DNA of 11,353 nucleotides from Fibrobacterota bacterium (GCA_043753995.1 JAYUVP010000079.1:1-11353); one strand, 5' to 3'. Shown: positions 1,270 through 11,353, numbered from the stretch's first letter. Notes: a model not told the origin generated them from the sequence alone. Program-made: numbers and translations.

Positions 1270-2178
1270 ATGCGCAATCCTGAACGCATCAAATTTGAAA
1301 AGCATTTTCGCCGTGGGCATCGCAGCTATGACTCGCAAGTCGGTGACTGGTGGGAATGGCGCGCCTCGGACGGACCCCATCGTGCGGCCTACCGCCATGT
1401 CATCTCTTGCATGCAGCGCTATTTCCGCCGCCAGGGAAAGACTCCCCGCTTGCTCATGGACTATGCTTGCGGCAGCGCCACCTTCCTCTCGCACTTGGCC
1501 GTGGCCTTTCCCAAAACGCGCCTGGTGGGTCTCGATGGCTCCAAGCATATGCTTGGCATGGCAGCCCAACGCCTCAGCGAATCAGGACTTGAGGCCGAAG
1601 TCGTGCCCCTGGAAAAAGCCTTTGATAACAAAGGTCCGCAAATTCGATTGGTGCAAACCCGTCTACCCAATTTCGACTTGCCCGAAGGCTCATGCGATGG
1701 CGTGGCCTTTGTCTTTCCCAATATCACGGCTGTGCCATCCGACCAACCTTATTATGACAAGCATGGTTACAAGATTCCGAAAGACGTCGCCGTGGGTCGC
1801 ATGTTAGCGCGCTTTCGTGAAATGGATCCCGAAGACGAAGTCGGTTCCATGGAAGTTGAAGATCGCTATGACGGTCTCATGACCGAACGCGTCGTCGCCC
1901 GCAATATACGCGGGCTCTTGCGCAAAGGGCGGCCTTGGTTCAAGGTCGATTATGCCAATGCGCATCGAAAAGAATTAAGTGAGCTGACTCAGTGGCGTAC
2001 TTTGTTTTCAGAGGGCGCCTTGACCATGCCTATCAAAGAAAAGCACAGCGAAGTATTTTTTCGTTATTGCAAGGACGAATTCAAGAAGAGCCGAGTCATA
2101 CTTGACGTCTATCATCAAACGCGCGATGCCAGCGACAAAACAGGTGGGTATTTCGTCACCTGGTTCGAAGGCGTTTGA
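1270..2178 (+). CDS. Class I SAM-dependent methyltransferase, substrate unknown
   Basis: Motif I variant LMDYACGSA, motif II LVGLDGSKHML, beta4 SCDGVAFVF, and RNIRGLLRKG resembling the 'rvLkpGG' helix-turn. RBS-like GAGGA at 1260-1264 overlaps the rluD stop. Gap to rluD is 8 nt. Confidence 0.75.
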   Translation: MRNPERIKFEKHFRRGHRSYDSQVGDWWEWRASDGPHRAAYRHVISCMQRYFRRQGKTPRLLMDYACGSATFLSHLAVAFPKTRLVGLDGSKHMLGMAAQRLSESGLEAEVVPLEKAFDNKGPQIRLVQTRLPNFDLPEGSCDGVAFVFPNITAVPSDQPYYDKHGYKIPKDVAVGRMLARFREMDPEDEVGSMEVEDRYDGLMTERVVARNIRGLLRKGRPWFKVDYANAHRKELSELTQWRTLFSEGALTMPIKEKHSEVFFRYCKDEFKKSRVILDVYHQTRDASDKTGGYFVTWFEGV

Positions 2179-2260: not shown

Positions 2261-4798
2261 TCACTCGTCCGCTTCGGCCCCTACGGTGGCTTTCGCTTCG
2301 CCCTTGCCTTTGCCAAAGCGTCCTTTGCCTTTGAATTCACGCGGCGGAAACTCGAATTCCAGTTTTCCATCCTTGGACAATTTCAAAAAGGCATCGAAAA
2401 AGCGCCGGGTTTTGGCGGATTGAAATCCCTGAATGAGTTCGGTTTTTTGGCCCGCTAACATGCGTAGCATACTGTCGCGGGTAATGGGCTTGCCAAGAAT
2501 GACCTTGCCCATCTTAAAGCCTTTTTTATCGCCCTTCATAGCGCTTTCGCTTAGATAACCCGTGAGGGTTTCCATCACCGCGGTGCCGTCGATGGGAGAG
2601 TTGCCGAGCGACTCTTGATTCACGATCTCCGGACCCTTACCATCTTCGCCCATGGCGTCTTCGAAGACGAACTCAACCTTGTTTTCCTCAGTGAGCCGAA
2701 TCGCCGCAGAAAAGGACTTGCCCATTTTACTACGAAAACCCGATAGCGGACCGACTCGACGCTTTTGCAGCAATTCAAGAATTTCGCTTTCGGCCATGTG
2801 TCGGCCGCCAAGCACTTTTCGAATCAAGATTTTGCCGTCGCTCGATTCCCATTTGCTGAGGGTTTCGAACATCGGCTTGCCATCTATGGGATTAGCGAAG
2901 CTCGCTTCCTTGCGATCGCGATCTTCGTCATAACCCTTGATATGGGAAACCATTTTGCGGGTGAGATCCTTGATCTCTTCCATAAAGGCCGGACGCGTGA
3001 TGGTTCCGCGCTCCATGGCATTCAGCTTGTATTCCCATTCACCGGTCAATTCGGGGCTCGTCAACTCTTCAATGCCGATGGCCTCAAGCAAACCGAGCAA
3101 GTCCGTGCCCTTGGCGGTAGGAATCAACTCCTTGCCCTCGCGCACGATATACTTGTCGTCAATAAGCCCTTCGATAATGGCGGCTCGCGTTGCTGGCGTT
3201 CCGAGTCCGCGCTCTTTCAAGGCTTCGCTCAGCTCTTCATCGTCTACGTATTTGCCGGCGCTTTCCATGAAGGAAAGCAAGGTCGATTCGGTCAAACGCG
3301 GTGGAGGCTTGGTCGCTTCTTTGCGTGCTTCTAATTCCATGGCGCGCCAGCGCACGCTTTGCTGCACGGGCGGAAGCAGGGCTTCTTCTTTTTTGTCTAT
3401 GCCGTAAATGGCACGCCAGCCAGCGTCTTCAAGCACCTTGCCTTCCGTTTTGAAGGTTTCGCCTTCCACCACGGAAAGACGGGTCGTAACATGATATCTC
3501 GCTGGCGGGAAGAACACGGCCAAGAAACGCTGTACCACCATGTGATAAATACGACGCTCGGCATCGCTTAATTCACCGGGCATCACATTGGTGGGAATAA
3601 TGGCAAAGTGATCGGAAACCTTGGTATTGTCGAATATGCGCTTGTCCATGCGCACATAGCCTTTATCAATCGCCTCCGCGGCGAACTTACCGTAATCGGT
3701 GTCGCGGAAGGTGCGCATCAAATCACGCGCCACCCCGACATAATCTTCAGGCAAGTAGCGACTAGCGGTACGCGGATAGGTCAGGACTTTGTGCTTTTCG
3801 TACAAGGCCTGGGCTATGCTCAAGGTTGTTCTAGCTGAAAATCCGTAGCGGGCATTGCCTTCGCGCTGTAGCGAGGTCAAGTCATAGAGGCCTGGCGCGC
3901 TTTGCGAAGAAGGCTTGCTGGTTTCCGTGACTTCAGCAACCTTACCAGTGCATTTGGCGACAATGGCCTTGGCGCGCGCCTCGTCCCATAGCCTCTCGGG
4001 CTTGGCAACATCGTCCTTTTCCTTGTCGGCTTTTTTGAAATTCGGGTCTATCCAACGTCCAGGATATTCGGGGCCGTCATTGGCGCCGGCACGAAAATTC
4101 GCATCGACTTCCCAATAATCTCGCGAACGAAAGGCATCGCGTTCCCGCTCGCGCCTCACCATCATGGAAAGAGTCGGCGTTTGCACGCGTCCGCAGGGCG
4201 TGAGGAAAAAACCGCCTTTCAGGGATTTATAACCGGTCAAGGCGCGTGAACCATTGATTCCAATAAGCCAATCCGCTTCGGAACGGCATTGCGCCGCAGC
4301 GGCGAGGTTTTGCATTTCGCCTTCCTCGCGTAAATGCTTGAAGCCCTCTTGTATGGCCGACTTGGTCATGCTTTGCAGCCAAAGCCTTTTGTACTCGAAT
4401 TTGAGCGGCTTAGTGGCACCGACATATTGGGTGATATAGCGAAAAATCAATTCGCCTTCTCGGCCTGCGTCGCAGGCATTCACCACGGTCTTTACGTCTT
4501 TGCGCTTCAGTAATTTCGCCAGAACATTGAGCTGCCCCTTGGTTCGGACTATGGGCGTAATAGCGAAAGTTTCAGGCAAGAAAGGCAAATTGTCGAGCGA
4601 CCATTCCTTGAAACGATCGTCCATGGCCTTGGGATTGGCGATGGCGACTAAATGGCCAATCGCATAGGAGACCAAGGTTTCAGAACCTTCGTAATACCCT
4701 TCTTGCTTTTGGAATTTTTCGGAAAGGGAGCGGGTAATGTCGAGGGCCACACTGGGCTTCTCGGCAATGACGAGGGTTTTGGGGGTCTCGGCTGCCAA
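2261..4798 (-). CDS. topB: DNA topoisomerase III (type IA) with two C-terminal Toprim_Crpt-like repeats
   Basis: TOPRIM motifs LVIAEKPSVA and NACDAGREGELIF; RLWLQSMT, EADWLIGINGSRA, GRVQTPT, active-site TYPRT, DHFAIIPT, GLGTPATRAAIIE and LTSPELTGEWEYKL, all of the TopB type. Start re-called to TTG at 4798 (845 aa), which has AGGAG 7 nt upstream and lies just before the first conserved strand. The ORF-track start at 4918 adds 40 implausible residues. Confidence 0.95.
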   Translation of the reverse strand: MAAETPKTLVIAEKPSVALDITRSLSEKFQKQEGYYEGSETLVSYAIGHLVAIANPKAMDDRFKEWSLDNLPFLPETFAITPIVRTKGQLNVLAKLLKRKDVKTVVNACDAGREGELIFRYITQYVGATKPLKFEYKRLWLQSMTKSAIQEGFKHLREEGEMQNLAAAAQCRSEADWLIGINGSRALTGYKSLKGGFFLTPCGRVQTPTLSMMVRRERERDAFRSRDYWEVDANFRAGANDGPEYPGRWIDPNFKKADKEKDDVAKPERLWDEARAKAIVAKCTGKVAEVTETSKPSSQSAPGLYDLTSLQREGNARYGFSARTTLSIAQALYEKHKVLTYPRTASRYLPEDYVGVARDLMRTFRDTDYGKFAAEAIDKGYVRMDKRIFDNTKVSDHFAIIPTNVMPGELSDAERRIYHMVVQRFLAVFFPPARYHVTTRLSVVEGETFKTEGKVLEDAGWRAIYGIDKKEEALLPPVQQSVRWRAMELEARKEATKPPPRLTESTLLSFMESAGKYVDDEELSEALKERGLGTPATRAAIIEGLIDDKYIVREGKELIPTAKGTDLLGLLEAIGIEELTSPELTGEWEYKLNAMERGTITRPAFMEEIKDLTRKMVSHIKGYDEDRDRKEASFANPIDGKPMFETLSKWESSDGKILIRKVLGGRHMAESEILELLQKRRVGPLSGFRSKMGKSFSAAIRLTEENKVEFVFEDAMGEDGKGPEIVNQESLGNSPIDGTAVMETLTGYLSESAMKGDKKGFKMGKVILGKPITRDSMLRMLAGQKTELIQGFQSAKTRRFFDAFLKLSKDGKLEFEFPPREFKGKGRFGKGKGEAKATVGAEADE

Positions 4799-4805
4799 AG
4801 AGAAT

Positions 4806-4810
4806 CTCCT
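4806..4810 (-). promoter_or_regulatory. Shine-Dalgarno site of topB
   Basis: The minus strand reads AGGAG-attctct-TTG (7-nt spacer). Confidence 0.8.
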
Positions 4811-4822
4811 GAATGGTCTTAA

Positions 4823-4851
4823 AGTATAGGAATGTGTAGGTCGAGCTACAA
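4823..4851 (-). promoter_or_regulatory. Putative sigma70-type promoter for topB
   Basis: The minus strand reads TTGTAG (4851-4846), a 17-nt spacer, then TATACT (4828-4823). This puts a transcription start near 4816, just upstream of the RBS. Confidence 0.6.
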
Positions 4852-4959
4852 ATTGGCCCAACCTTTGCTTTTTATAGTCATCTGCGCAAGACGGAAACAT
4901 GGCGGTTTCCTCCCCCACCCTGGCCTATCTTTAGCGCTTCAAATCAACCCTGCTAGGCT

Positions 4960-5901
4960 ATGCCAGAATACCCCGATCTTGAAGTCTATCTAGACGCTTT
5001 GCGGCAAAGGGTTCAGGGCCAAACCCTGCTTGCCCTAAGGTTAAATAGCCCATTTTTATTGCGAACCGTTTCTCCCGCCTTGTCCGAGTTTCACGGCAAA
5101 AGAGTGGAGAGCCTTTCCCGATTGGGCAAGCGATTGGTATTTGGATTTGAAGGCGAAAACTTTCTGGTTTTGCATCTCATGGTTGCCGGTAGACTTCAGT
5201 GGAAACCACAGGGGACAGCCCTATCCGGAAAAATCCAGTTGGCGGCATTCGATTTTTCTCCCGGCACCTTGATCCTGACTGAGGCAGGAACCAAAAAACG
5301 AGCCTCCTTGCATGCCGTGCGCGGCCAAAGCGCCTTAGAAAAGCACAACCCCGGCGGCCTAGAAGCAGTGGCATCCACCTTGGCCGATTTCACCCAAAGG
5401 ATTCGCTCCGAAAATCACACTTTGAAGCGCACCTTAACCGATCCTCGGATTTTTAGCGGCATAGGCAATGCCTATTCCGATGAAATATTGCATCGCTCCC
5501 GACTCTCGCCCGTCCAATTGACTTTGAAAATGGACGACGCATCGATCGCTCGCTTGCATCAAGCCGTGCAAGAGGTCATGCTGGAATGGAAGCAGAAGCT
5601 TCAAGCCGAGGCGAATTCGGGTTTTCCTGCAAAGGTCACCGCCTTTCACCCCGAAATGGCCGTGCACGGTCGCTATGGCAAACCTTGCCCTGAGTGCGGA
5701 GAATTGGTGCAGCGCATTCGCTATGCCGAAAACGAAACCGATTATTGCCCCAAGTGCCAAAACCAAGGCCGCTTATTGGCCGACCGGGCGCTTTCGCGCC
5801 TACTGGGGGCCGATTGGCCGAAAACCATGACCGACATGGAAGAAAAGTGGGCTCATTGGGGAATTGCAAAAAAGCCGCTTCCCGAGCCCAAGGAAGAATA
5901 A
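4960..5901 (+). CDS. Fpg/Nei-family DNA glycosylase/AP lyase (non-canonical subfamily)
   Basis: N-terminal MPEYPDLE (catalytic Pro2/Glu3), RLGKRL (conserved Lys), LVLHLMVAGRL, H2TH motif SGIGNAYSDEILHRSRLSP, and zinc finger CPECG...YCPKCQ followed by GRLLADRALSRLL. No clear SD sequence. The symbol mutM is withheld because canonical Fpg specificity residues are missing. Confidence 0.92.
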   Translation: MPEYPDLEVYLDALRQRVQGQTLLALRLNSPFLLRTVSPALSEFHGKRVESLSRLGKRLVFGFEGENFLVLHLMVAGRLQWKPQGTALSGKIQLAAFDFSPGTLILTEAGTKKRASLHAVRGQSALEKHNPGGLEAVASTLADFTQRIRSENHTLKRTLTDPRIFSGIGNAYSDEILHRSRLSPVQLTLKMDDASIARLHQAVQEVMLEWKQKLQAEANSGFPAKVTAFHPEMAVHGRYGKPCPECGELVQRIRYAENETDYCPKCQNQGRLLADRALSRLLGADWPKTMTDMEEKWAHWGIAKKPLPEPKEE

Positions 5902-5913
5902 AGGCAAAACAGT

Positions 5914-6678
5914 TTAGACGCTAGCGCCCGATCCCTCTATGGTGCGCTGCAATTCGTCGGCCAAAAGGGTTTTTGCCTTGTCCCAATGGCGTGTGAGCAC
6001 ATCGGCGACGAGACGGGTATTTTCTGTTCTTTCGCCCTTAATGCGATATCCCAAAGCCTGGAACATGTGCAAGTGATCATAGCCGCTATGTACGGCTTCA
6101 CTCTCAACTGCAGTCAAACGCACTAGGGTCTTCAATTCAAATAAAGCGCGCAAGAGGTGTTCGGCATATCGTTCATCCTGCAACATCCCATAAACGCGAT
6201 GCCAGAGCGGGCGCTGACGTAATGGAATACCGTGGCCAATAGAATTTTCAACCGTGGCTGCCACGGGTAAAACGACCTGCATTTCACGGAAACGCTGTAA
6301 CCATTTCCTTGTTTCGGCGGTGCCTGTATGCGTTTGCCATGCGGCGATATGTATGACGAGATCGGTGGACAAACCCTCACCCGCCAGGAGTCGAATCGCC
6401 GCAGCGGTATCGAGGCTCAATCGCGAGGGATCTTGAATCACCAAATGCTTGATGCCTTCCGCTTTCGCGCGCAGGCATAAGGATTCCAAGCCTTCGCGTA
6501 ATTGGCCGGGACGAGCAGGACGAATGTCCTGACCCAAGCCAACCACTTCCAATTGGCTCATGAGGCAATAGGCCTGTAATTCCACCGACTGGGCATCCAA
6601 AGAGGCCTGCGGAGCTTCCTCTGGCCATGAGGAGCAATACAAGAATGCTTTTTCACCGTACATAGTTTGTTTTCGCAA
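5914..6678 (-). CDS. Hypothetical protein: degenerate serine-resolvase-like N-terminal domain plus an unrecognised C-terminal helical domain
   Basis: aa 10-134 follow the resolvase catalytic-domain pattern in order: AFLYCSS..Q.SLDAQ..ELQAYC....LEVVG...D.........REGLESL....K..GIKHLVIQDPSRLS.D ... HTGTAETRKWLQ. The ORF is uninterrupted and fills the gap between its neighbours. The start is either TTG 6678 or ATG 6663. Confidence 0.65.
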   Translation of the reverse strand: MRKQTMYGEKAFLYCSSWPEEAPQASLDAQSVELQAYCLMSQLEVVGLGQDIRPARPGQLREGLESLCLRAKAEGIKHLVIQDPSRLSLDTAAAIRLLAGEGLSTDLVIHIAAWQTHTGTAETRKWLQRFREMQVVLPVAATVENSIGHGIPLRQRPLWHRVYGMLQDERYAEHLLRALFELKTLVRLTAVESEAVHSGYDHLHMFQALGYRIKGERTENTRLVADVLTRHWDKAKTLLADELQRTIEGSGASV

Positions 6679-6766: not shown

Positions 6767-7900
6767 ATGTTCAAAAACCTCCAACAATCGACACCCATAC
6801 ATTTCATAACAACTGATTTTCCCCCAAACCTTGGAGGATTAGAGACTTATGCCTGGGAGATTTCACAAGGTTTATTGGAAATCGACCTAGTTAGCGCGGC
6901 CTTAAATCGGGTAGCTCCACCGCCTCAAATTGTTCAAGGGCCAAGTCATGGCCCGCCCCGATACCGTTGGCATCGCCGGCGTGACCGTGTGGGAGCTGGC
7001 TTGTGGAGCGCTTTCGATGCCTGCATATTGCCGAGAGCCACTCGACTGCATATGCAATGGAGCACGGCCTTGCCTTCCTATTTACGGCGACGAGTAGGGT
7101 TCCCTGGACGTTACATCGTCCTCGCCCATGGCGCGGAAATCGTCGAAAGCAATCCATGGTTGCGCTTGACCATGAAACGCATTCTCGAAGCCGCAGACGC
7201 GGTCGTAACAGGATCGCATTTTACGCGGAACCTTCTTCTTGAACAGGGAGTACGACCACGTCGCCTGGAAATCATCGCCTATGGGGCCCCGCCGCCGCCA
7301 CCCGAAACCGATCGTGCCACACCCGGTCAAAGCAATAGATTGGAATTGCTATGCGTGCACAGGCTGGTACCACGCAAAGGCACGGCTCTATTGTTTCATA
7401 GTTTGGCCACATTGTTGGAAATGCCTTGGCATTTGACCGTGATTGGCGAGGGTCCAGAAAGGGATAGCTTGATGCATTTGGCGAATCAACTGGGCCTAGA
7501 ATGCAGAGTGTCATTTCTTGGTGCCGTGAATGAAGACGAGAAAAAGAAATGCCTAGGCAATTCCGACTTATTCATTTTGCCCAGCCTATCTCCTCAAGGC
7601 AATAATCATGTTGAAGGATTGGGGCTCGGCTTGCTTGAAGCCCAGGCCTTTGGCGTGCCGGTCTTGGCAGCGAAAACGGGGGGCATTCCGGAAGCCCTCG
7701 TCGAAGGACAAACCGGCTGGCTTTTTCCTCCTGGCTCGGTTTCCGCGCTCGCCCAAGCTCTAGGGAATTGTCTTTCCAATCCTCAGGAATTGATAAGGCG
7801 AGGGCGAAATGGCCCGACATTCATCGCCAATCATTATGACTGGGGGAAAAATATTCGGGAATGGAAAGCCTTATTGGCAGCGCTTTCGGAACGGCCGTAA
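6767..7900 (+). CDS. Family 4 glycosyltransferase (GT-B fold, retaining; PimB-like N-terminal motif)
   Basis: ITTDFPPNLGGLETY N-terminal motif, LAHGAE, RLVPRKG, VIGEGPER, DLFILPS, and the E-x7-E signature EGLGLGLLEAQAFGVPVLA followed by GGIPEALVEGQTG. Confidence 0.92.
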   Translation: MFKNLQQSTPIHFITTDFPPNLGGLETYAWEISQGLLEIDLVSAALNRVAPPPQIVQGPSHGPPRYRWHRRRDRVGAGLWSAFDACILPRATRLHMQWSTALPSYLRRRVGFPGRYIVLAHGAEIVESNPWLRLTMKRILEAADAVVTGSHFTRNLLLEQGVRPRRLEIIAYGAPPPPPETDRATPGQSNRLELLCVHRLVPRKGTALLFHSLATLLEMPWHLTVIGEGPERDSLMHLANQLGLECRVSFLGAVNEDEKKKCLGNSDLFILPSLSPQGNNHVEGLGLGLLEAQAFGVPVLAAKTGGIPEALVEGQTGWLFPPGSVSALAQALGNCLSNPQELIRRGRNGPTFIANHYDWGKNIREWKALLAALSERP

Positions 7901-7913
7901 AACGGCCTAATAA

Positions 7914-8378
7914 TCAGGAATATTTTTCTTCGCCAATGCGCAGGTTGGCGTAAAACTCTTCGGGGGAATTGGAAAGTATCAAGCTGCGACGAATGTCGGC
8001 ATCCGACATGATGCGCGAAATCGCCGATAAGGCACGAATATGTGGCCCGGTGGTATTGGATGGCGACACGATTAGGAAAAGCAAGTATACCGGCTCTTTG
8101 TCTATGGCCTCAAAATCCAATCCTCGTTTCACCGAGCAAGCCACCACGCACATGCGATCGACAAAGTCGACTTTTCCGTGAGGAACAGCTAAACCGCAGC
8201 CAATACCGGTGGACATTTTATCTTCGCGGCCCAAAACGGCTGCCAAAATTCCGGCCCGGTTTTCGATCTGATAGGCCTGACAAAGCAGATCGACCATCTC
8301 TTCCAGGATTTCACGTTTGGTTTGCCGATGCGAGTCGATGATGACGCACTTTTCGGTAAACCGTTCGGAAAGCTTCAT
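7914..8378 (-). CDS. Stand-alone PTS EIIA component (PTS_EIIA_2; PtsN/fructose-mannitol type)
   Basis: REDKMSTGIGCGLAVPHGK containing the phospho-acceptor His, GLDFEAIDKEPVYLLFLIVSP and HIRALSAISR. 154 aa. Purine-rich GGAAGGG precedes the ATG. Confidence 0.92.
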   Translation of the reverse strand: MKLSERFTEKCVIIDSHRQTKREILEEMVDLLCQAYQIENRAGILAAVLGREDKMSTGIGCGLAVPHGKVDFVDRMCVVACSVKRGLDFEAIDKEPVYLLFLIVSPSNTTGPHIRALSAISRIMSDADIRRSLILSNSPEEFYANLRIGEEKYS

Positions 8379-8467: not shown

Positions 8468-11353
8468 TTAGAATTCGGCCCCTAAAGACCAATATTCGCG
8501 AGAAGGGTTTTTATGCGAGCCTACGCCGTCGACCGGCTTGCCCCAGGTATACTTGAGCACGAAGATCCCAAGATTAAGGCGCATGCCCCACCCCCAGCCC
8601 ATGCCCAATTGCTCCAGGGCATTGCCGCTAGACCAAGCTCCGCCATAATCGATGAAGACATTTCCCATGACATAACGAATGGAAAACGGTATGGGCCAAA
8701 GTACGGTGAACTCTTCGATGAAGGGATAGCGAAACTCCACATTGCCCAAAAATTTGCGCGTTCCCGCATATTCGAAGTAATCATAGCCGCGCAACGGGAA
8801 ATCGAAGGCGCCGAAATACCACTCTTCCAGCTTGTCCGGGATATTGGCTTCATTGGCATGCGCATTGAAGGTTAAATCCTCGCCGCCGACCCAGTAAACG
8901 TGCGGGTTACGGTAACCTCCGATGGCTTCCGAAGCGCCGGCGGAAAGCCGCAATGCCAAGGTGTATTTCTTGCCGAACTCAAAATACCGGCGTATGTCGG
9001 CATCAAAAACCGAGTAGGAGTATTTATCCTGAAGGGCTGGTGGCACATAGGAAACCTGTAGCCTCGCTCGCATGCCATTGACGGGGCCGACCATGCCCCA
9101 TTGCGTGTGATCATGAACAAAGGACAGCGAGGTGAAAAGCGCGTTGTTTTGTGAATTACGGGCAGCCTGGCTACCTGAATCACTGCTTTCGGCCTTGCGC
9201 GAAGCAAAAAATGTGGTGGCTGCTCCCTCCAAGCGGGTGAAAGTGGAAAGTGGATAAGAGGCTCCACCTCCGAATCCCCAGCGTCTATCCAAAACGGTGG
9301 AATCGAAAAGGGTATTCGAATCTCGGAAAACGCTACGCGTGGATTGTTCGGCACGGTGAAAAGCCGAAATGGAAAAGTCAGGCTTCAAAGGCAAATAGCT
9401 GTAAACGATTTCACCATTGGTATTGTCCCAGCTTCCGTTGATGGAAAGGGCCATGCCGATTTCCTGATCGCCCATCAAATCACTCATGGTGAGATAGGCC
9501 ATGCCACCCGCCCCATAATAATTGTCCACGCCTAAGGCCGCATTGGCATTGTCCAAGCTGAAAATCGGGCGATAAGGCTTTTGCTTGAAATTGCCCGCAG
9601 CATCCACATATAGGCTGCTGTCCTGCAAAAAGGGCGAACGCTTAACGACTTTGGCGGATTTTTTTTCTGCTGTGACCACGCTATCGCTGAGAGTTAATGT
9701 TGCCGTGTCGCGGGCGGAGGCAACCACACTCGAGTCTTGGACTTTGGACGTATCTTGGCGCGTCGAATCGGTCTTGGCAAAAACTGGGGCGGCCGAATCA
9801 CGGGCTGTGGAATCCTTAGTGGCGGTTTGCGTGCCCATCTTTGAGGAATCGGTCTTGGTCGCGGCTTTCACTAGACTCGAATCTTCCGATATTTTTCGGC
9901 TTGATTTACGGCTCTTGCGCTTCCTTTTGCCGTCTTTTCCGTCGCCGGAATCCGGCTTATAGCTTTCCAAATTCGCAAAGGTCACAGGTCTGAAAAAAGT
10001 TTTAGTAGAATCTTCGGCAACTTGAATGAAGCGGGTTTTGGGCAATTCTCCATCCATGACCTTGCCCATGGGATCTTTCATCAAATAAATGTCCCACCCG
10101 CCGGCCTCGAATAGCGAAAAAGTCATGAGCTTGCCGTCACGTGACCAGGCCGGCGTGAAACATCCCGTCAGCAGATTCGAAATGGGGTGCGATACCCAAG
10201 TGCCACCCGAATCCTTGGCCAAATACAGATTGTCAAGCCCGGAACGATTCGACACAAAGGAAATGAGGCTATCCGAAGGCCCATAGCTCGGCATTTTTTC
10301 ATCCCAACGGCCCGACGCGATGCGCTGCAATTGCCCTGTCACGAGGTCAAGGCGATACAAATCTTTAAATGGCAATAGGCTGTCGTAGTGACTCAGAGGA
10401 TCGCTTTGCGGAGTCATATCGGTGGAGGGACGGTCGCTTTCAAAGGCCAAATAGCGGCCCGAAGGTGAAAAGACCGGCTTGTCATCATTCGCGATGTCAT
10501 GAGTTAACTGACGTGTTACCTGGGTCGCGATATCGGTGATGAAAAGATCGGTGATGCCGCTCTTGCTGGCGCTGAAGGCGATTTGTTTGCCATCGCGGGA
10601 CCAGTCTGGCGAGAGTATGGCTTGAACATCGGGCCGAATTTCCCCAGTGATTTTACCGGTTTTAACATCGATCAGGTGAATGGCGTCACGACCTTCCGTC
10701 TTGCTGACTATGGCTAGTCGCTTGCCATCGGGGCTCCAGGATATCGCCGACTTGAAACTATGGAAGCTTTCATGCTTGCTCCCTTTGCCGCCCTGAATCA
10801 CGGTCCGCGTGACTTTTTCCGTTTTCACATTGAGGATGTAAATCGCCTCCCAAGATTCCCGGTCAGAGAAAAAAGCGATCTCCTTGCCGTCTGGAGATAT
10901 CGATGGCTGGAGGTTATAGAAGCTATTGTCCTTACCATGGCGGGTCAGTTGGCGAGCCACGGTTTTCCCATATTGCCTTTGCCCGAGCTCAGGCCAATAC
11001 AGATAGCGCAATTCGCGCAACCAAATCTCTCCTGCCTCTTCCAAAGACGTCTTGGTCACTTTTTTAAATGCCTGGGGCAAGTCGCGCTCTTCAGTCAAGG
11101 CTGCGATGAATCGCGTCACTGTACCCTTGCCATAAGACGCGTCCATCCAACGCAAGAAAAGCTGGCCGCCTTTGTAGGCTAGAAAGCCTCCGAAATCTAC
11201 GGTTGGTGGGGCGACATAGCCGAAAGTTGTCGCATCGATCATGAAAAACTCCGAGGCGAGATCCCATCCTAAGGTGGCGTATTCGGCCAAGCCTTCATTC
11301 ACCCACAATGGAAACTGATAACCCGCTTGACGGGCCATAGCCGAGGCCCCTTC
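8468..11353 (-). CDS. Large outer-membrane protein: peptidase-MA-like domain, TolB/PD40 beta-propeller and Omp85 (BamA/TamA-like) beta-barrel; 5' end outside the window
   Basis: The frame is open to the window edge (EGASA precedes M at 11338). PLWVNEGLAEY and AYKGGQLFLRWMDASYG are typical of the C-terminal half of gluzincin/peptidase-MA domains. Six PD40-like repeats follow. The barrel has SDLMGDQ at its start, the loop-6 motif LRGY (8783-8794), FIDYG, and a C-terminal beta-signal YWSLGAEF ending in Phe. Confidence 0.85.
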   Translation of the reverse strand, partial: EGASAMARQAGYQFPLWVNEGLAEYATLGWDLASEFFMIDATTFGYVAPPTVDFGGFLAYKGGQLFLRWMDASYGKGTVTRFIAALTEERDLPQAFKKVTKTSLEEAGEIWLRELRYLYWPELGQRQYGKTVARQLTRHGKDNSFYNLQPSISPDGKEIAFFSDRESWEAIYILNVKTEKVTRTVIQGGKGSKHESFHSFKSAISWSPDGKRLAIVSKTEGRDAIHLIDVKTGKITGEIRPDVQAILSPDWSRDGKQIAFSASKSGITDLFITDIATQVTRQLTHDIANDDKPVFSPSGRYLAFESDRPSTDMTPQSDPLSHYDSLLPFKDLYRLDLVTGQLQRIASGRWDEKMPSYGPSDSLISFVSNRSGLDNLYLAKDSGGTWVSHPISNLLTGCFTPAWSRDGKLMTFSLFEAGGWDIYLMKDPMGKVMDGELPKTRFIQVAEDSTKTFFRPVTFANLESYKPDSGDGKDGKRKRKSRKSSRKISEDSSLVKAATKTDSSKMGTQTATKDSTARDSAAPVFAKTDSTRQDTSKVQDSSVVASARDTATLTLSDSVVTAEKKSAKVVKRSPFLQDSSLYVDAAGNFKQKPYRPIFSLDNANAALGVDNYYGAGGMAYLTMSDLMGDQEIGMALSINGSWDNTNGEIVYSYLPLKPDFSISAFHRAEQSTRSVFRDSNTLFDSTVLDRRWGFGGGASYPLSTFTRLEGAATTFFASRKAESSDSGSQAARNSQNNALFTSLSFVHDHTQWGMVGPVNGMRARLQVSYVPPALQDKYSYSVFDADIRRYFEFGKKYTLALRLSAGASEAIGGYRNPHVYWVGGEDLTFNAHANEANIPDKLEEWYFGAFDFPLRGYDYFEYAGTRKFLGNVEFRYPFIEEFTVLWPIPFSIRYVMGNVFIDYGGAWSSGNALEQLGMGWGWGMRLNLGIFVLKYTWGKPVDGVGSHKNPSREYWSLGAEF
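9614..9958 (-). repeat. Low-complexity D-(S/T)-x repeat linker within the Omp85-like gene
   Basis: The 115-aa stretch has 11 D-S/T dipeptides and a basic patch KRKRKSRKSSRK. A 13-bp direct repeat GAATCGGTCTTGG occurs at 9765-9777 and 9846-9858, both encoding KTDS. Confidence 0.75.
10080..10915 (-). repeat. Six PD40/TolB-like protein repeats (approximate bounds)
   Basis: PSISPDGKEIAFFSDR, ISWSPDGKRLAIVS, PDWSRDGKQIAFSA, PVFSPSGRYLAFESDR, PSYGPSDSLISFVSNRSG and PAWSRDGKLMTFSL, each followed by a DIY/DLF/AIY-type strand. Confidence 0.85.

Follow-up and report, generated by a model that had tools for sequence, protein, structure and literature searches.

The locus described here raises the question of whether the catalytic domain of a serine recombinase can be kept as an ordinary chromosomal gene after the residues that cut DNA have been lost. 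It lies in a stretch of 11,353 nucleotides from a Fibrobacterota bacterium (GCA_043753995.1, JAYUVP010000079.1:1-11353), which was analysed as a whole and is referred to below as the window. An open reading frame (ORF) on the minus strand (5914-6678) codes for a protein here named ResL (resolvase-like protein). An earlier note on this DNA, made from the sequence alone, had interpreted the product as a catalytically dead resolvase domain fused to an unrecognised C-terminal domain and had suggested that it was a repurposed scaffold. Our results point in the same direction: with a probability of about 60 per cent, ResL descends from a small serine recombinase, has become domesticated, no longer recombines DNA and acts as a non-catalytic dimer presenting its C-terminal domains.

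The reading frame is uninterrupted, as the earlier note had stated without naming a strand, and comprises 254 amino acids (aa) if counted from the TTG at 6678. A product of 249 aa starting with the ATG at 6663 (M6) appears likelier, because all close homologues begin at this position and a product of this length has been recorded. The ResL gene would then occupy 5914..6663 (minus strand, stop codon 5914-5916), and the five extra codons that include the upstream TTG (6664..6678), which are found in no close homologue, are probably untranslated. Residue numbers below follow the 254-aa numbering. Three parts can be distinguished in the protein: an N-terminal domain with the fold of a serine-recombinase catalytic domain (aa 9-135, nucleotides 6274..6654), ending in a short helix E (aa 121-135); a poorly conserved linker of predicted disorder (aa 136-153, 6220..6273; predicted local distance difference test score, pLDDT, below 50 for aa 138-154); and a C-terminal six-helix domain that belongs to no known family (aa 154-249, 5932..6219). 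All motifs quoted in the earlier note (YCSSW, SLDAQ..ELQAYC, REGLESL, LVIQDPSRLSLD and HTGTAETR) are present in the translation.

In the Pfam scan ResL matched the Resolvase family (PF00239) with an E value of 2.7e-4 and 21.5 bits, which is under the gathering cut-off of 23.3. Relatives of ResL score above the cut-off (34 bits for P0021), and a precomputed table lists PF00239 in 8 of 17 homologues. Profiles made from ResL homologues identified in the PDB the catalytic domain of TP901-1 integrase (E values of 3.9e-5, 4.8e-8 and 5.9e-6) as well as gamma-delta/Tn3 resolvase, IS607-type TnpA and TnpX. The AlphaFold2 model of ResL (mean pLDDT 82) was matched by Foldseek to PDB chain 3bvp_B with an E value of 9.7e-6 and a target template modelling (TM) score of 0.78, and VIA-align superimposed 128 residues of the two structures (Z 15.5, root-mean-square deviation, rmsd, 2.6). 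The top 29 rows of the VIA-align comparison contained serine recombinases only (Z 8.9-15.5) and were followed by the N-terminal domain of HflX (Z at most 8.4). In addition, hhalign related ResL to a small recombinase of canonical type from a different genome within the phylum (PF00239 E value 2.6e-34, weak HTH_7 match) with 97.3% probability and an E value of 2.2e-11 over 118 columns. The first approximately 135 aa of ResL are thus a genuine serine-recombinase catalytic domain by fold and homology; the resolvase fold proposed in the earlier note was found by profile and structure comparisons alike, although the PF00239 score stayed under the cut-off.

The best structural match, the catalytic domain of TP901-1 integrase (PDB 3bvp), has a loop of similar length between strand 1 and helix A, and gamma-delta/Tn3 resolvase (1gdt, 2rsl and 5cy1) shows the same fold with VIA-align Z scores of 12.1-12.7. 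ResL is only 14-20% identical in sequence to these proteins, and unlike them it is devoid of the catalytic residues and of a recombinase, zinc-ribbon or helix-turn-helix (HTH) DNA-binding module. A weak match (aa 11-91, E value 0.0084) was obtained to YneB (NCBIfam NF049883), a chromosomal resolvase-like family; according to the part of PMC6051672 that was consulted, YneB is a member of an SOS-induced operon. With 15.6 bits, where 175 are required, ResL was rejected as a member of this family.

The catalytic residues were compared in 40 distinct two-domain homologues, 25 of which came from genomic loci and 15 from protein searches. Positions are given in the numbering of gamma-delta resolvase, and their equivalents in ResL were derived from alignments. 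R8, R68 and R71 are essential in Tn3 and gamma-delta resolvase. The equivalents of Y6 (Y14 in ResL), Q19 (Q30), D36 (D51) and R45 (R61) carry the same residue in all 40 proteins, and at the equivalent of R68 (R86) there is Arg in 35, Gln in three and Asn in two. The earlier note had recognised only the R45 and R68 equivalents as remaining, to which Y6, Q19 and D36 have to be added. At the equivalent of R8, which in the ungapped alignment is S16, Arg does not occur in any of the 40 homologues (S 36, A 3, G 1), and the equivalent of S10 in the same alignment, W18, is occupied by W in 37, N in two and C in one. The position of D67 (S85) is S in 17, G in 15, T in four, N in two, E in one and D in one, and that of R71 (L89) is R in 24, L in seven, K in four and another residue in five. 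Where active serine recombinases have the Y-x-R-x-S nucleophile motif, the family reads Y-C-S-x-W (Y-C-S-S-W in ResL, aa 14-18, 6625..6639, minus strand), and D67-R68-x-x-R71 (D-R-L-x-R) is replaced in ResL by S-R-L-S-L (aa 85-89, 6412..6426, minus strand). The losses of R8, D67 and R71 noticed previously in ResL were therefore seen again at S16, S85 and L89. As to their being shared by the homologues, the alignments indicate that the losses of R8 and D67 are family-wide, because Arg is never found at the first position and Asp only once at the second, whereas the loss of R71 is peculiar to the clade of the window.

Whether S16 or W18 occupies the position of the nucleophile depends on the choice of alignment. 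Ungapped alignment, which places S16 on R8 and W18 on S10, was obtained with four of six relatives from the phylum, with 3guv and in the hhalign comparison. In the HMMER alignments to TP901-1 integrase and to locus L046, two residues are deleted and S16 falls on the nucleophile serine. The description in the earlier note, that S10 was replaced by W or shifted by one residue, has to be corrected accordingly. There is no universal serine candidate in the family: four of the 40 homologues have A or G at position 16, and position 18 is W in most. Taking these motifs together, we infer that ResL would be unable to perform serine-recombinase chemistry. The invariance of the Y6, Q19, D36 and R45 equivalents suggests that the former pocket for phosphate binding may still be used in part.

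The best-scoring canonical relatives of ResL within the phylum are three small serine recombinases of approximately 210 aa from other Fibrobacterota (L044, L047 and L048). These proteins carry F-V-R-V-S-S and S-R-L-G-R, so that Ser is already present at D67; their helix E is complete, and they end in an HTH. ResL has in common with them the Y-C that ends helix A, the S-R-x-G-R-type motif and a His in strand 4. Unlike them, it has S and W at the positions of R8 and S10, a short helix E and, in place of the HTH, a C-terminal domain of another kind with about 100 aa; its gene is fixed in the chromosome and present in one copy. ResL probably descends from this subgroup, with R8 and S10 substituted and everything past the first half of helix E replaced.

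The replacement part does not resemble the DNA-binding module expected of active recombinases, which is either HTH_7 or a recombinase domain combined with a zinc ribbon. In the Pfam scan of aa 150-254 no family, HTH included, was found at an E value of 0.1 or lower, and the sequence-profile search of the PDB gave no match to the C-terminal part. When modelled alone, the C-terminal domain (aa 154-249) was predicted as six helices with a pLDDT of 93.4 and a predicted TM score (pTM) of 0.85. Its mean column conservation (0.76) is the highest in the protein, compared with 0.59 for the N-terminal domain and 0.43 for the linker. The near-invariant stretches include L-Q-D-E-R-Y-A, V-H-x-G-Y-D-H-L and G-x-R-I-K-G-E-x-T-x-N-T; the last of these, written as G-[FY]-R-I-K-G-E-x-T-x-N-T, forms in the model a loop of 10 residues joining helices 3 and 4.

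No family or fold could be assigned to this domain. There was no match in PHROGs and nothing usable in PADLOC, where the best E value for the C-terminal domain of the window was 0.02 and a match to AbiEi (E value 7e-4) was limited to a single stand-alone homologue. Foldseek detected no fold match in the PDB (best E value 1.3) or in BFVD (best E value 0.85), and VIA-align against 48,161 chains gave none with a Z score of 5 or above. The top VIA-align row was 6mks_A (the CARD of NLRC4; Z 4.8, rmsd 3.8, 82 residues aligned), many other CARD/PYD (death-fold) rows followed with Z scores of 3.5-4.7, and the HTH domain of WhiA was aligned twice (Z 4.6, rmsd 2.4, 62 residues; Z 4.2, rmsd 2.3, 58 residues), all of these being values that chance alone can give for helical domains. 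Nothing informative came from the ESM Atlas, where the best match scored 0.91 and shared 92 of 256 features. The domain that the earlier note called unrecognised has thus remained so in Pfam, PHROGs, PDB and BFVD. What is new in ResL is a highly conserved orphan domain in place of the DNA-binding domain, and literature searches, judged by listings and abstracts, showed no paper that describes the family or the joining of a resolvase core to a domain of this kind.

The C-terminal domain also occurs alone, in rare metagenomic proteins of about 100-116 aa (P0025-P0042). Most of these are acidic, with a high content of Asn, Lys and Ile; the isoelectric point (pI) is below 6.2 in 13 of 14 of them. 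The median pI of the two-domain proteins is 5.4 (acidic) for the N-terminal and 8.8 (mildly basic) for the C-terminal domain. With a narrower alignment, no stand-alone relatives were found among metagenome and viral contigs. One protein, P0037 (618 aa), consists of near-identical tandem repeats, the ends of which weakly resemble the start of the C-terminal domain (six stretches, E value 1.2e-4); this resemblance may be a chance or low-complexity match.

The conservation pattern is accompanied by clear signs of selection. For the 70 pairs of orthologues that are 69% or more identical, the ratio of nonsynonymous to synonymous substitution rates (dN/dS, Nei-Gojobori) was 0.066-0.264 over the whole gene, 0.075-0.351 in the N-terminal domain and 0.024-0.171 in the C-terminal domain; the value was lower for the C-terminal domain in 68 of the 70 pairs, which share ancestry and hence are not independent. 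These ratios are far below 1 in both domains, as the earlier note had proposed to check. The frames of all full-length matches are intact and contain no stop codons, and orthologues with only 38-49% identity still keep 50 near-invariant positions. ResL is under strong purifying selection, which is strongest on the C-terminal domain.

ResL is a rare protein. When 1.84 billion representatives were scanned exhaustively with HMMER, only 24 proteins had an E value of 1e-3 or lower; the named records of the family are from metagenome-assembled genomes of uncultured Fibrobacterota/Fibrobacteria. The single ResL protein used as query found no match in the genome contigs, and a search with one of the alignments (A3) gave 19 loci. 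Among 296 genomes of the phylum, the two-domain protein is present in that of the window, in 21 of 31 genomes of the same family (f1) and in the only genome of the sister family (f3). Ten of the 12 genomes of genus g4, which has small genomes, lack it, as do all six of family f2. In the 14 other matching genomes the match is limited to the N-terminal domain and comes from ordinary recombinases. One unpublished genome (G021) was included in these tallies and in the count of topoisomerase III in the order, and its locus (L007) in the dN/dS and residue counts; its ResL is identical to a public record (L025), and no claim depends on this genome alone. The genome of the window, which is 97% complete, has one copy of the gene.

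In all 15 related loci (11 + 4), ResL is located between a gene for a PtsN-like enzyme IIA (EIIA) and the gene for topoisomerase III, on the same strand as both, and 12 of the 15 (9/11 + 3/4) also have a divergently oriented gene for a family 4 glycosyltransferase (GT4). At the five loci without ResL, topoisomerase III directly adjoins the EIIA gene in every case and GT4 is absent too. GT4 alone is missing at two loci (L018 and L024), where ResL is retained. Together, ResL and GT4 resemble a module that is inserted or deleted as a unit between the PtsN-like and the topoisomerase III genes (L050-L054 compared with L014-L024); small-genome relatives and family f2 have neither of the two. ResL is vertically inherited at one chromosomal position. 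The synteny suggested in the earlier note applied only in part: GT4 is usually present, but the Fpg/Nei-type DNA glycosylase gene that lies beside ResL in the window was found at none of the 15 related loci (0/11 + 0/4). Between positions 4500 and 8600 of the window only short two-copy repeats of chance type were detected, with no element ends and no recombination sites, in accordance with the former observation that no transposon ends flank the gene. No invertible segment was found around ResL, and a promoter and terminator scan of its surroundings stayed at chance level. Mobility, multiple copies and cognate sites, which would be expected of an active recombinase, are thus all missing.

The structure of a ResL homodimer was also predicted. 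The interface score ipSAE was 0.48 (median of three runs), compared with 0.00 for the best of three controls. Of 30 proteins solved as pairs of one chain, 20 attain this mark, as does one of 23 solved as single chains; because a custom alignment was used for ResL, these counts hold only roughly. The runs agreed in at least 39% of the contacts, with a partner pLDDT of at least 73. The predicted interface consists of helix E, the invariant W114 and the 83-85/91/94 loops.

The reading that we prefer can be stated as follows. ResL would dimerise in the manner of resolvases through the short helix E and W114, would work without catalysis and would display two copies of the C-terminal domain, which in turn would be a module for binding DNA, a ligand or another protein as partner. 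The shared substitutions, the low dN/dS, the single copy and the fixed locus all agree with the repurposed scaffold of the earlier note. Because the N-terminal domain and the stand-alone relatives of the C-terminal domain are acidic, we lean towards a regulatory or adaptor role, with binding of a partner or a ligand, rather than a classical basic DNA-binding role. Several points weigh against this picture. S16 is Ser in 36/40 homologues and was aligned by HMMER with the nucleophile of TP901-1 integrase, so a shifted nucleophile is conceivable, and the equivalents of R45 (40/40) and R68 (35/40) have been retained. Resolvase dimers are among the solved structures, and for this reason the dimer score may reflect the model's memory of them, that is, likeness rather than evidence for ResL itself; moreover, conservation at the interface (0.54) does not exceed that in the rest of the N-terminal domain (0.59). 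The binding role proposed for the C-terminal domain was deduced from its conservation alone. Finally, dS is saturated between the window and every relative for which DNA is available (the nearest has 71% identity), and the dN/dS estimates therefore do not extend to the window's own branch.

Other explanations were weighed against the same data. ResL could be a sequence-specific DNA-binding regulator of its own promoter and of the divergent GT4 gene, acting as TnpR does at res. The arrangement of the two genes, with about 100 bp between them, would suit such a role, as would the restriction of GT4 at this locus to genomes with ResL, the mildly basic C-terminal domain of the two-domain proteins (median pI 8.8) and the weak VIA-align matches to the HTH domain of WhiA. 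Yet these Z scores (4.6 and 4.2) are far below what chance gives for helical domains, no HTH family was matched, the G-[FY]-R-I-K-G-E-x-T-x-N-T stretch forms a loop of 10 residues rather than a turn, and the stand-alone relatives are acidic. Furthermore, ResL persists without GT4 at two of 11 loci, and the intergenic region has no conserved repeat or palindrome. We consider a regulator of this kind rather unlikely. It is also unlikely, and a little more doubtful, that the C-terminal domain represents an undescribed family which captured the dead resolvase core as a dimerisation platform and turned it into a non-catalytic factor controlling DNA topology or recombination; in that case ResL might cooperate at DNA crossings with topoisomerase III, its neighbour, or might poison incoming serine recombinases by forming mixed dimers through helix E. 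A more direct link to the neighbouring gene would exist if ResL were an accessory factor of topoisomerase III that, for example, recognises DNA crossings or recruits the enzyme. ResL is directly upstream on the same strand at 15/15 related loci, and both proteins derive from the enzymology of DNA strand passage. However, topoisomerase III is found in 38 of 39 genomes of the order, also in those without ResL, the two genes are about 45-235 bp apart, and a conserved TTATATATATT-type motif precedes the TTG start of topoisomerase III, which implies transcription separate from ResL. In the genome of the window they are even separated by an opposing fpg gene, and the constant adjacency can be explained by simple inheritance of a single insertion. 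The accessory role is accordingly quite improbable.

The idea that ResL is still an enzyme, be it an atypical recombinase, a nickase or a phosphotransferase, using S16 or another nucleophile with the R45/R68 pocket, draws on the same serine that was counted above against our reading, present in 36 of the 40 homologues and set by HMMER on the nucleophile of TP901-1 integrase and of the canonical relative L046, and on the four invariant positions (Y6, Q19, D36 and R45). Opposed to it are four otherwise intact homologues with A or G at position 16, the absence of R8 from 40/40 and of D67 from 39/40 proteins, the Gln or Asn that stands for R68 in five, and the loss of R71 in 16, that of the window included. 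The closest canonical relatives align without gaps and put W18 on the nucleophile, and a DNA-binding domain and flanking sites are lacking in this single-copy gene with its fixed locus. We think there is little chance that ResL is catalytically active. Least probable of all, by our estimate nearly negligible, is that ResL has no function and is the remnant of a mobile element that has yet to decay. It does derive from a mobile-element enzyme, and it appears to be dispensable in genus g4 and family f2, because 10/12 genomes of the former and those of the latter are without it. The intact frames without a single stop in all full-length matches, the 50 near-invariant positions maintained at 38-49% identity and an omega of 0.07-0.26 contradict this explanation.

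Serine recombinases are known almost exclusively as enzymes of mobile elements. ResL, by contrast, is a recombinase core that has long been kept as a fixed chromosomal gene without the cutting residues or the usual DNA-binding domain, which suggests that the fold serves for more than recombination, for instance for dimerisation or through a residual phosphate pocket. It also defines a small and very strongly conserved helical domain without known relatives, which is a target for structural and functional study. In practice such work is limited by the hosts, which are uncultured Fibrobacteria of sediments, and by a gene context that gives no functional clue.

The neighbours of ResL in the window were identified with Pfam unless noted otherwise. 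On the upstream side, the GT4 gene is at 6767..7900 (plus strand, divergent from ResL) and the PtsN-like gene, the conserved upstream neighbour, at 7914..8378 (minus strand; phosphotransferase system family PTS_EIIA_2, E value 2.7e-33). On the other side is the Fpg/Nei-type DNA glycosylase gene (4960..5901, plus strand; Pfam and NCBIfam), which is located between ResL and topoisomerase III in the genome of the window alone. Its stop codon is 12 bp from that of ResL and its start about 160 bp from the probable start of the topoisomerase gene, both of which have the opposite orientation. The nearest relative (L055), whose topoisomerase is 84% identical, has no fpg at this locus, and the gene looks like a recent single-gene insertion. 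Fpg was rejected as a conserved partner of ResL on account of its absence from the 15 related loci.

The topoisomerase III gene (2261..4918, minus strand; Topoisom_bac, E value 6.4e-112) is the constant downstream neighbour of ResL. Its ORF codes for 885 aa from a GTG at 4918, and translation probably begins with the TTG at 4798 (TTG-GCx, Leu41), the start of the related proteins. A conserved TTATATATATT-like motif is present approximately 40-50 bp upstream of this TTG at nine loci (L015, L017, L019, L022, L029, L034, L039, L058 and L059); in the window it gave no match with two mismatches allowed. An operon or translational coupling of ResL with topoisomerase III was rejected because of this promoter-like motif in the gaps between the genes and because topoisomerase III is present regardless of ResL.

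Further from ResL, a gene at 8468-11338 (minus strand) codes for a 956-aa protein with PD40 beta-propeller repeats and a C-terminal Omp85 barrel, and with a low-complexity linker rich in Ser, Thr, Lys and Asp at about aa 455-560; its position beside the PtsN-like gene is conserved across the order. At 1270-2178 (plus strand) there is a gene resembling class I S-adenosylmethionine-dependent methyltransferases, which directly follows rluD, and its location beside topoisomerase III is likewise conserved across the order.

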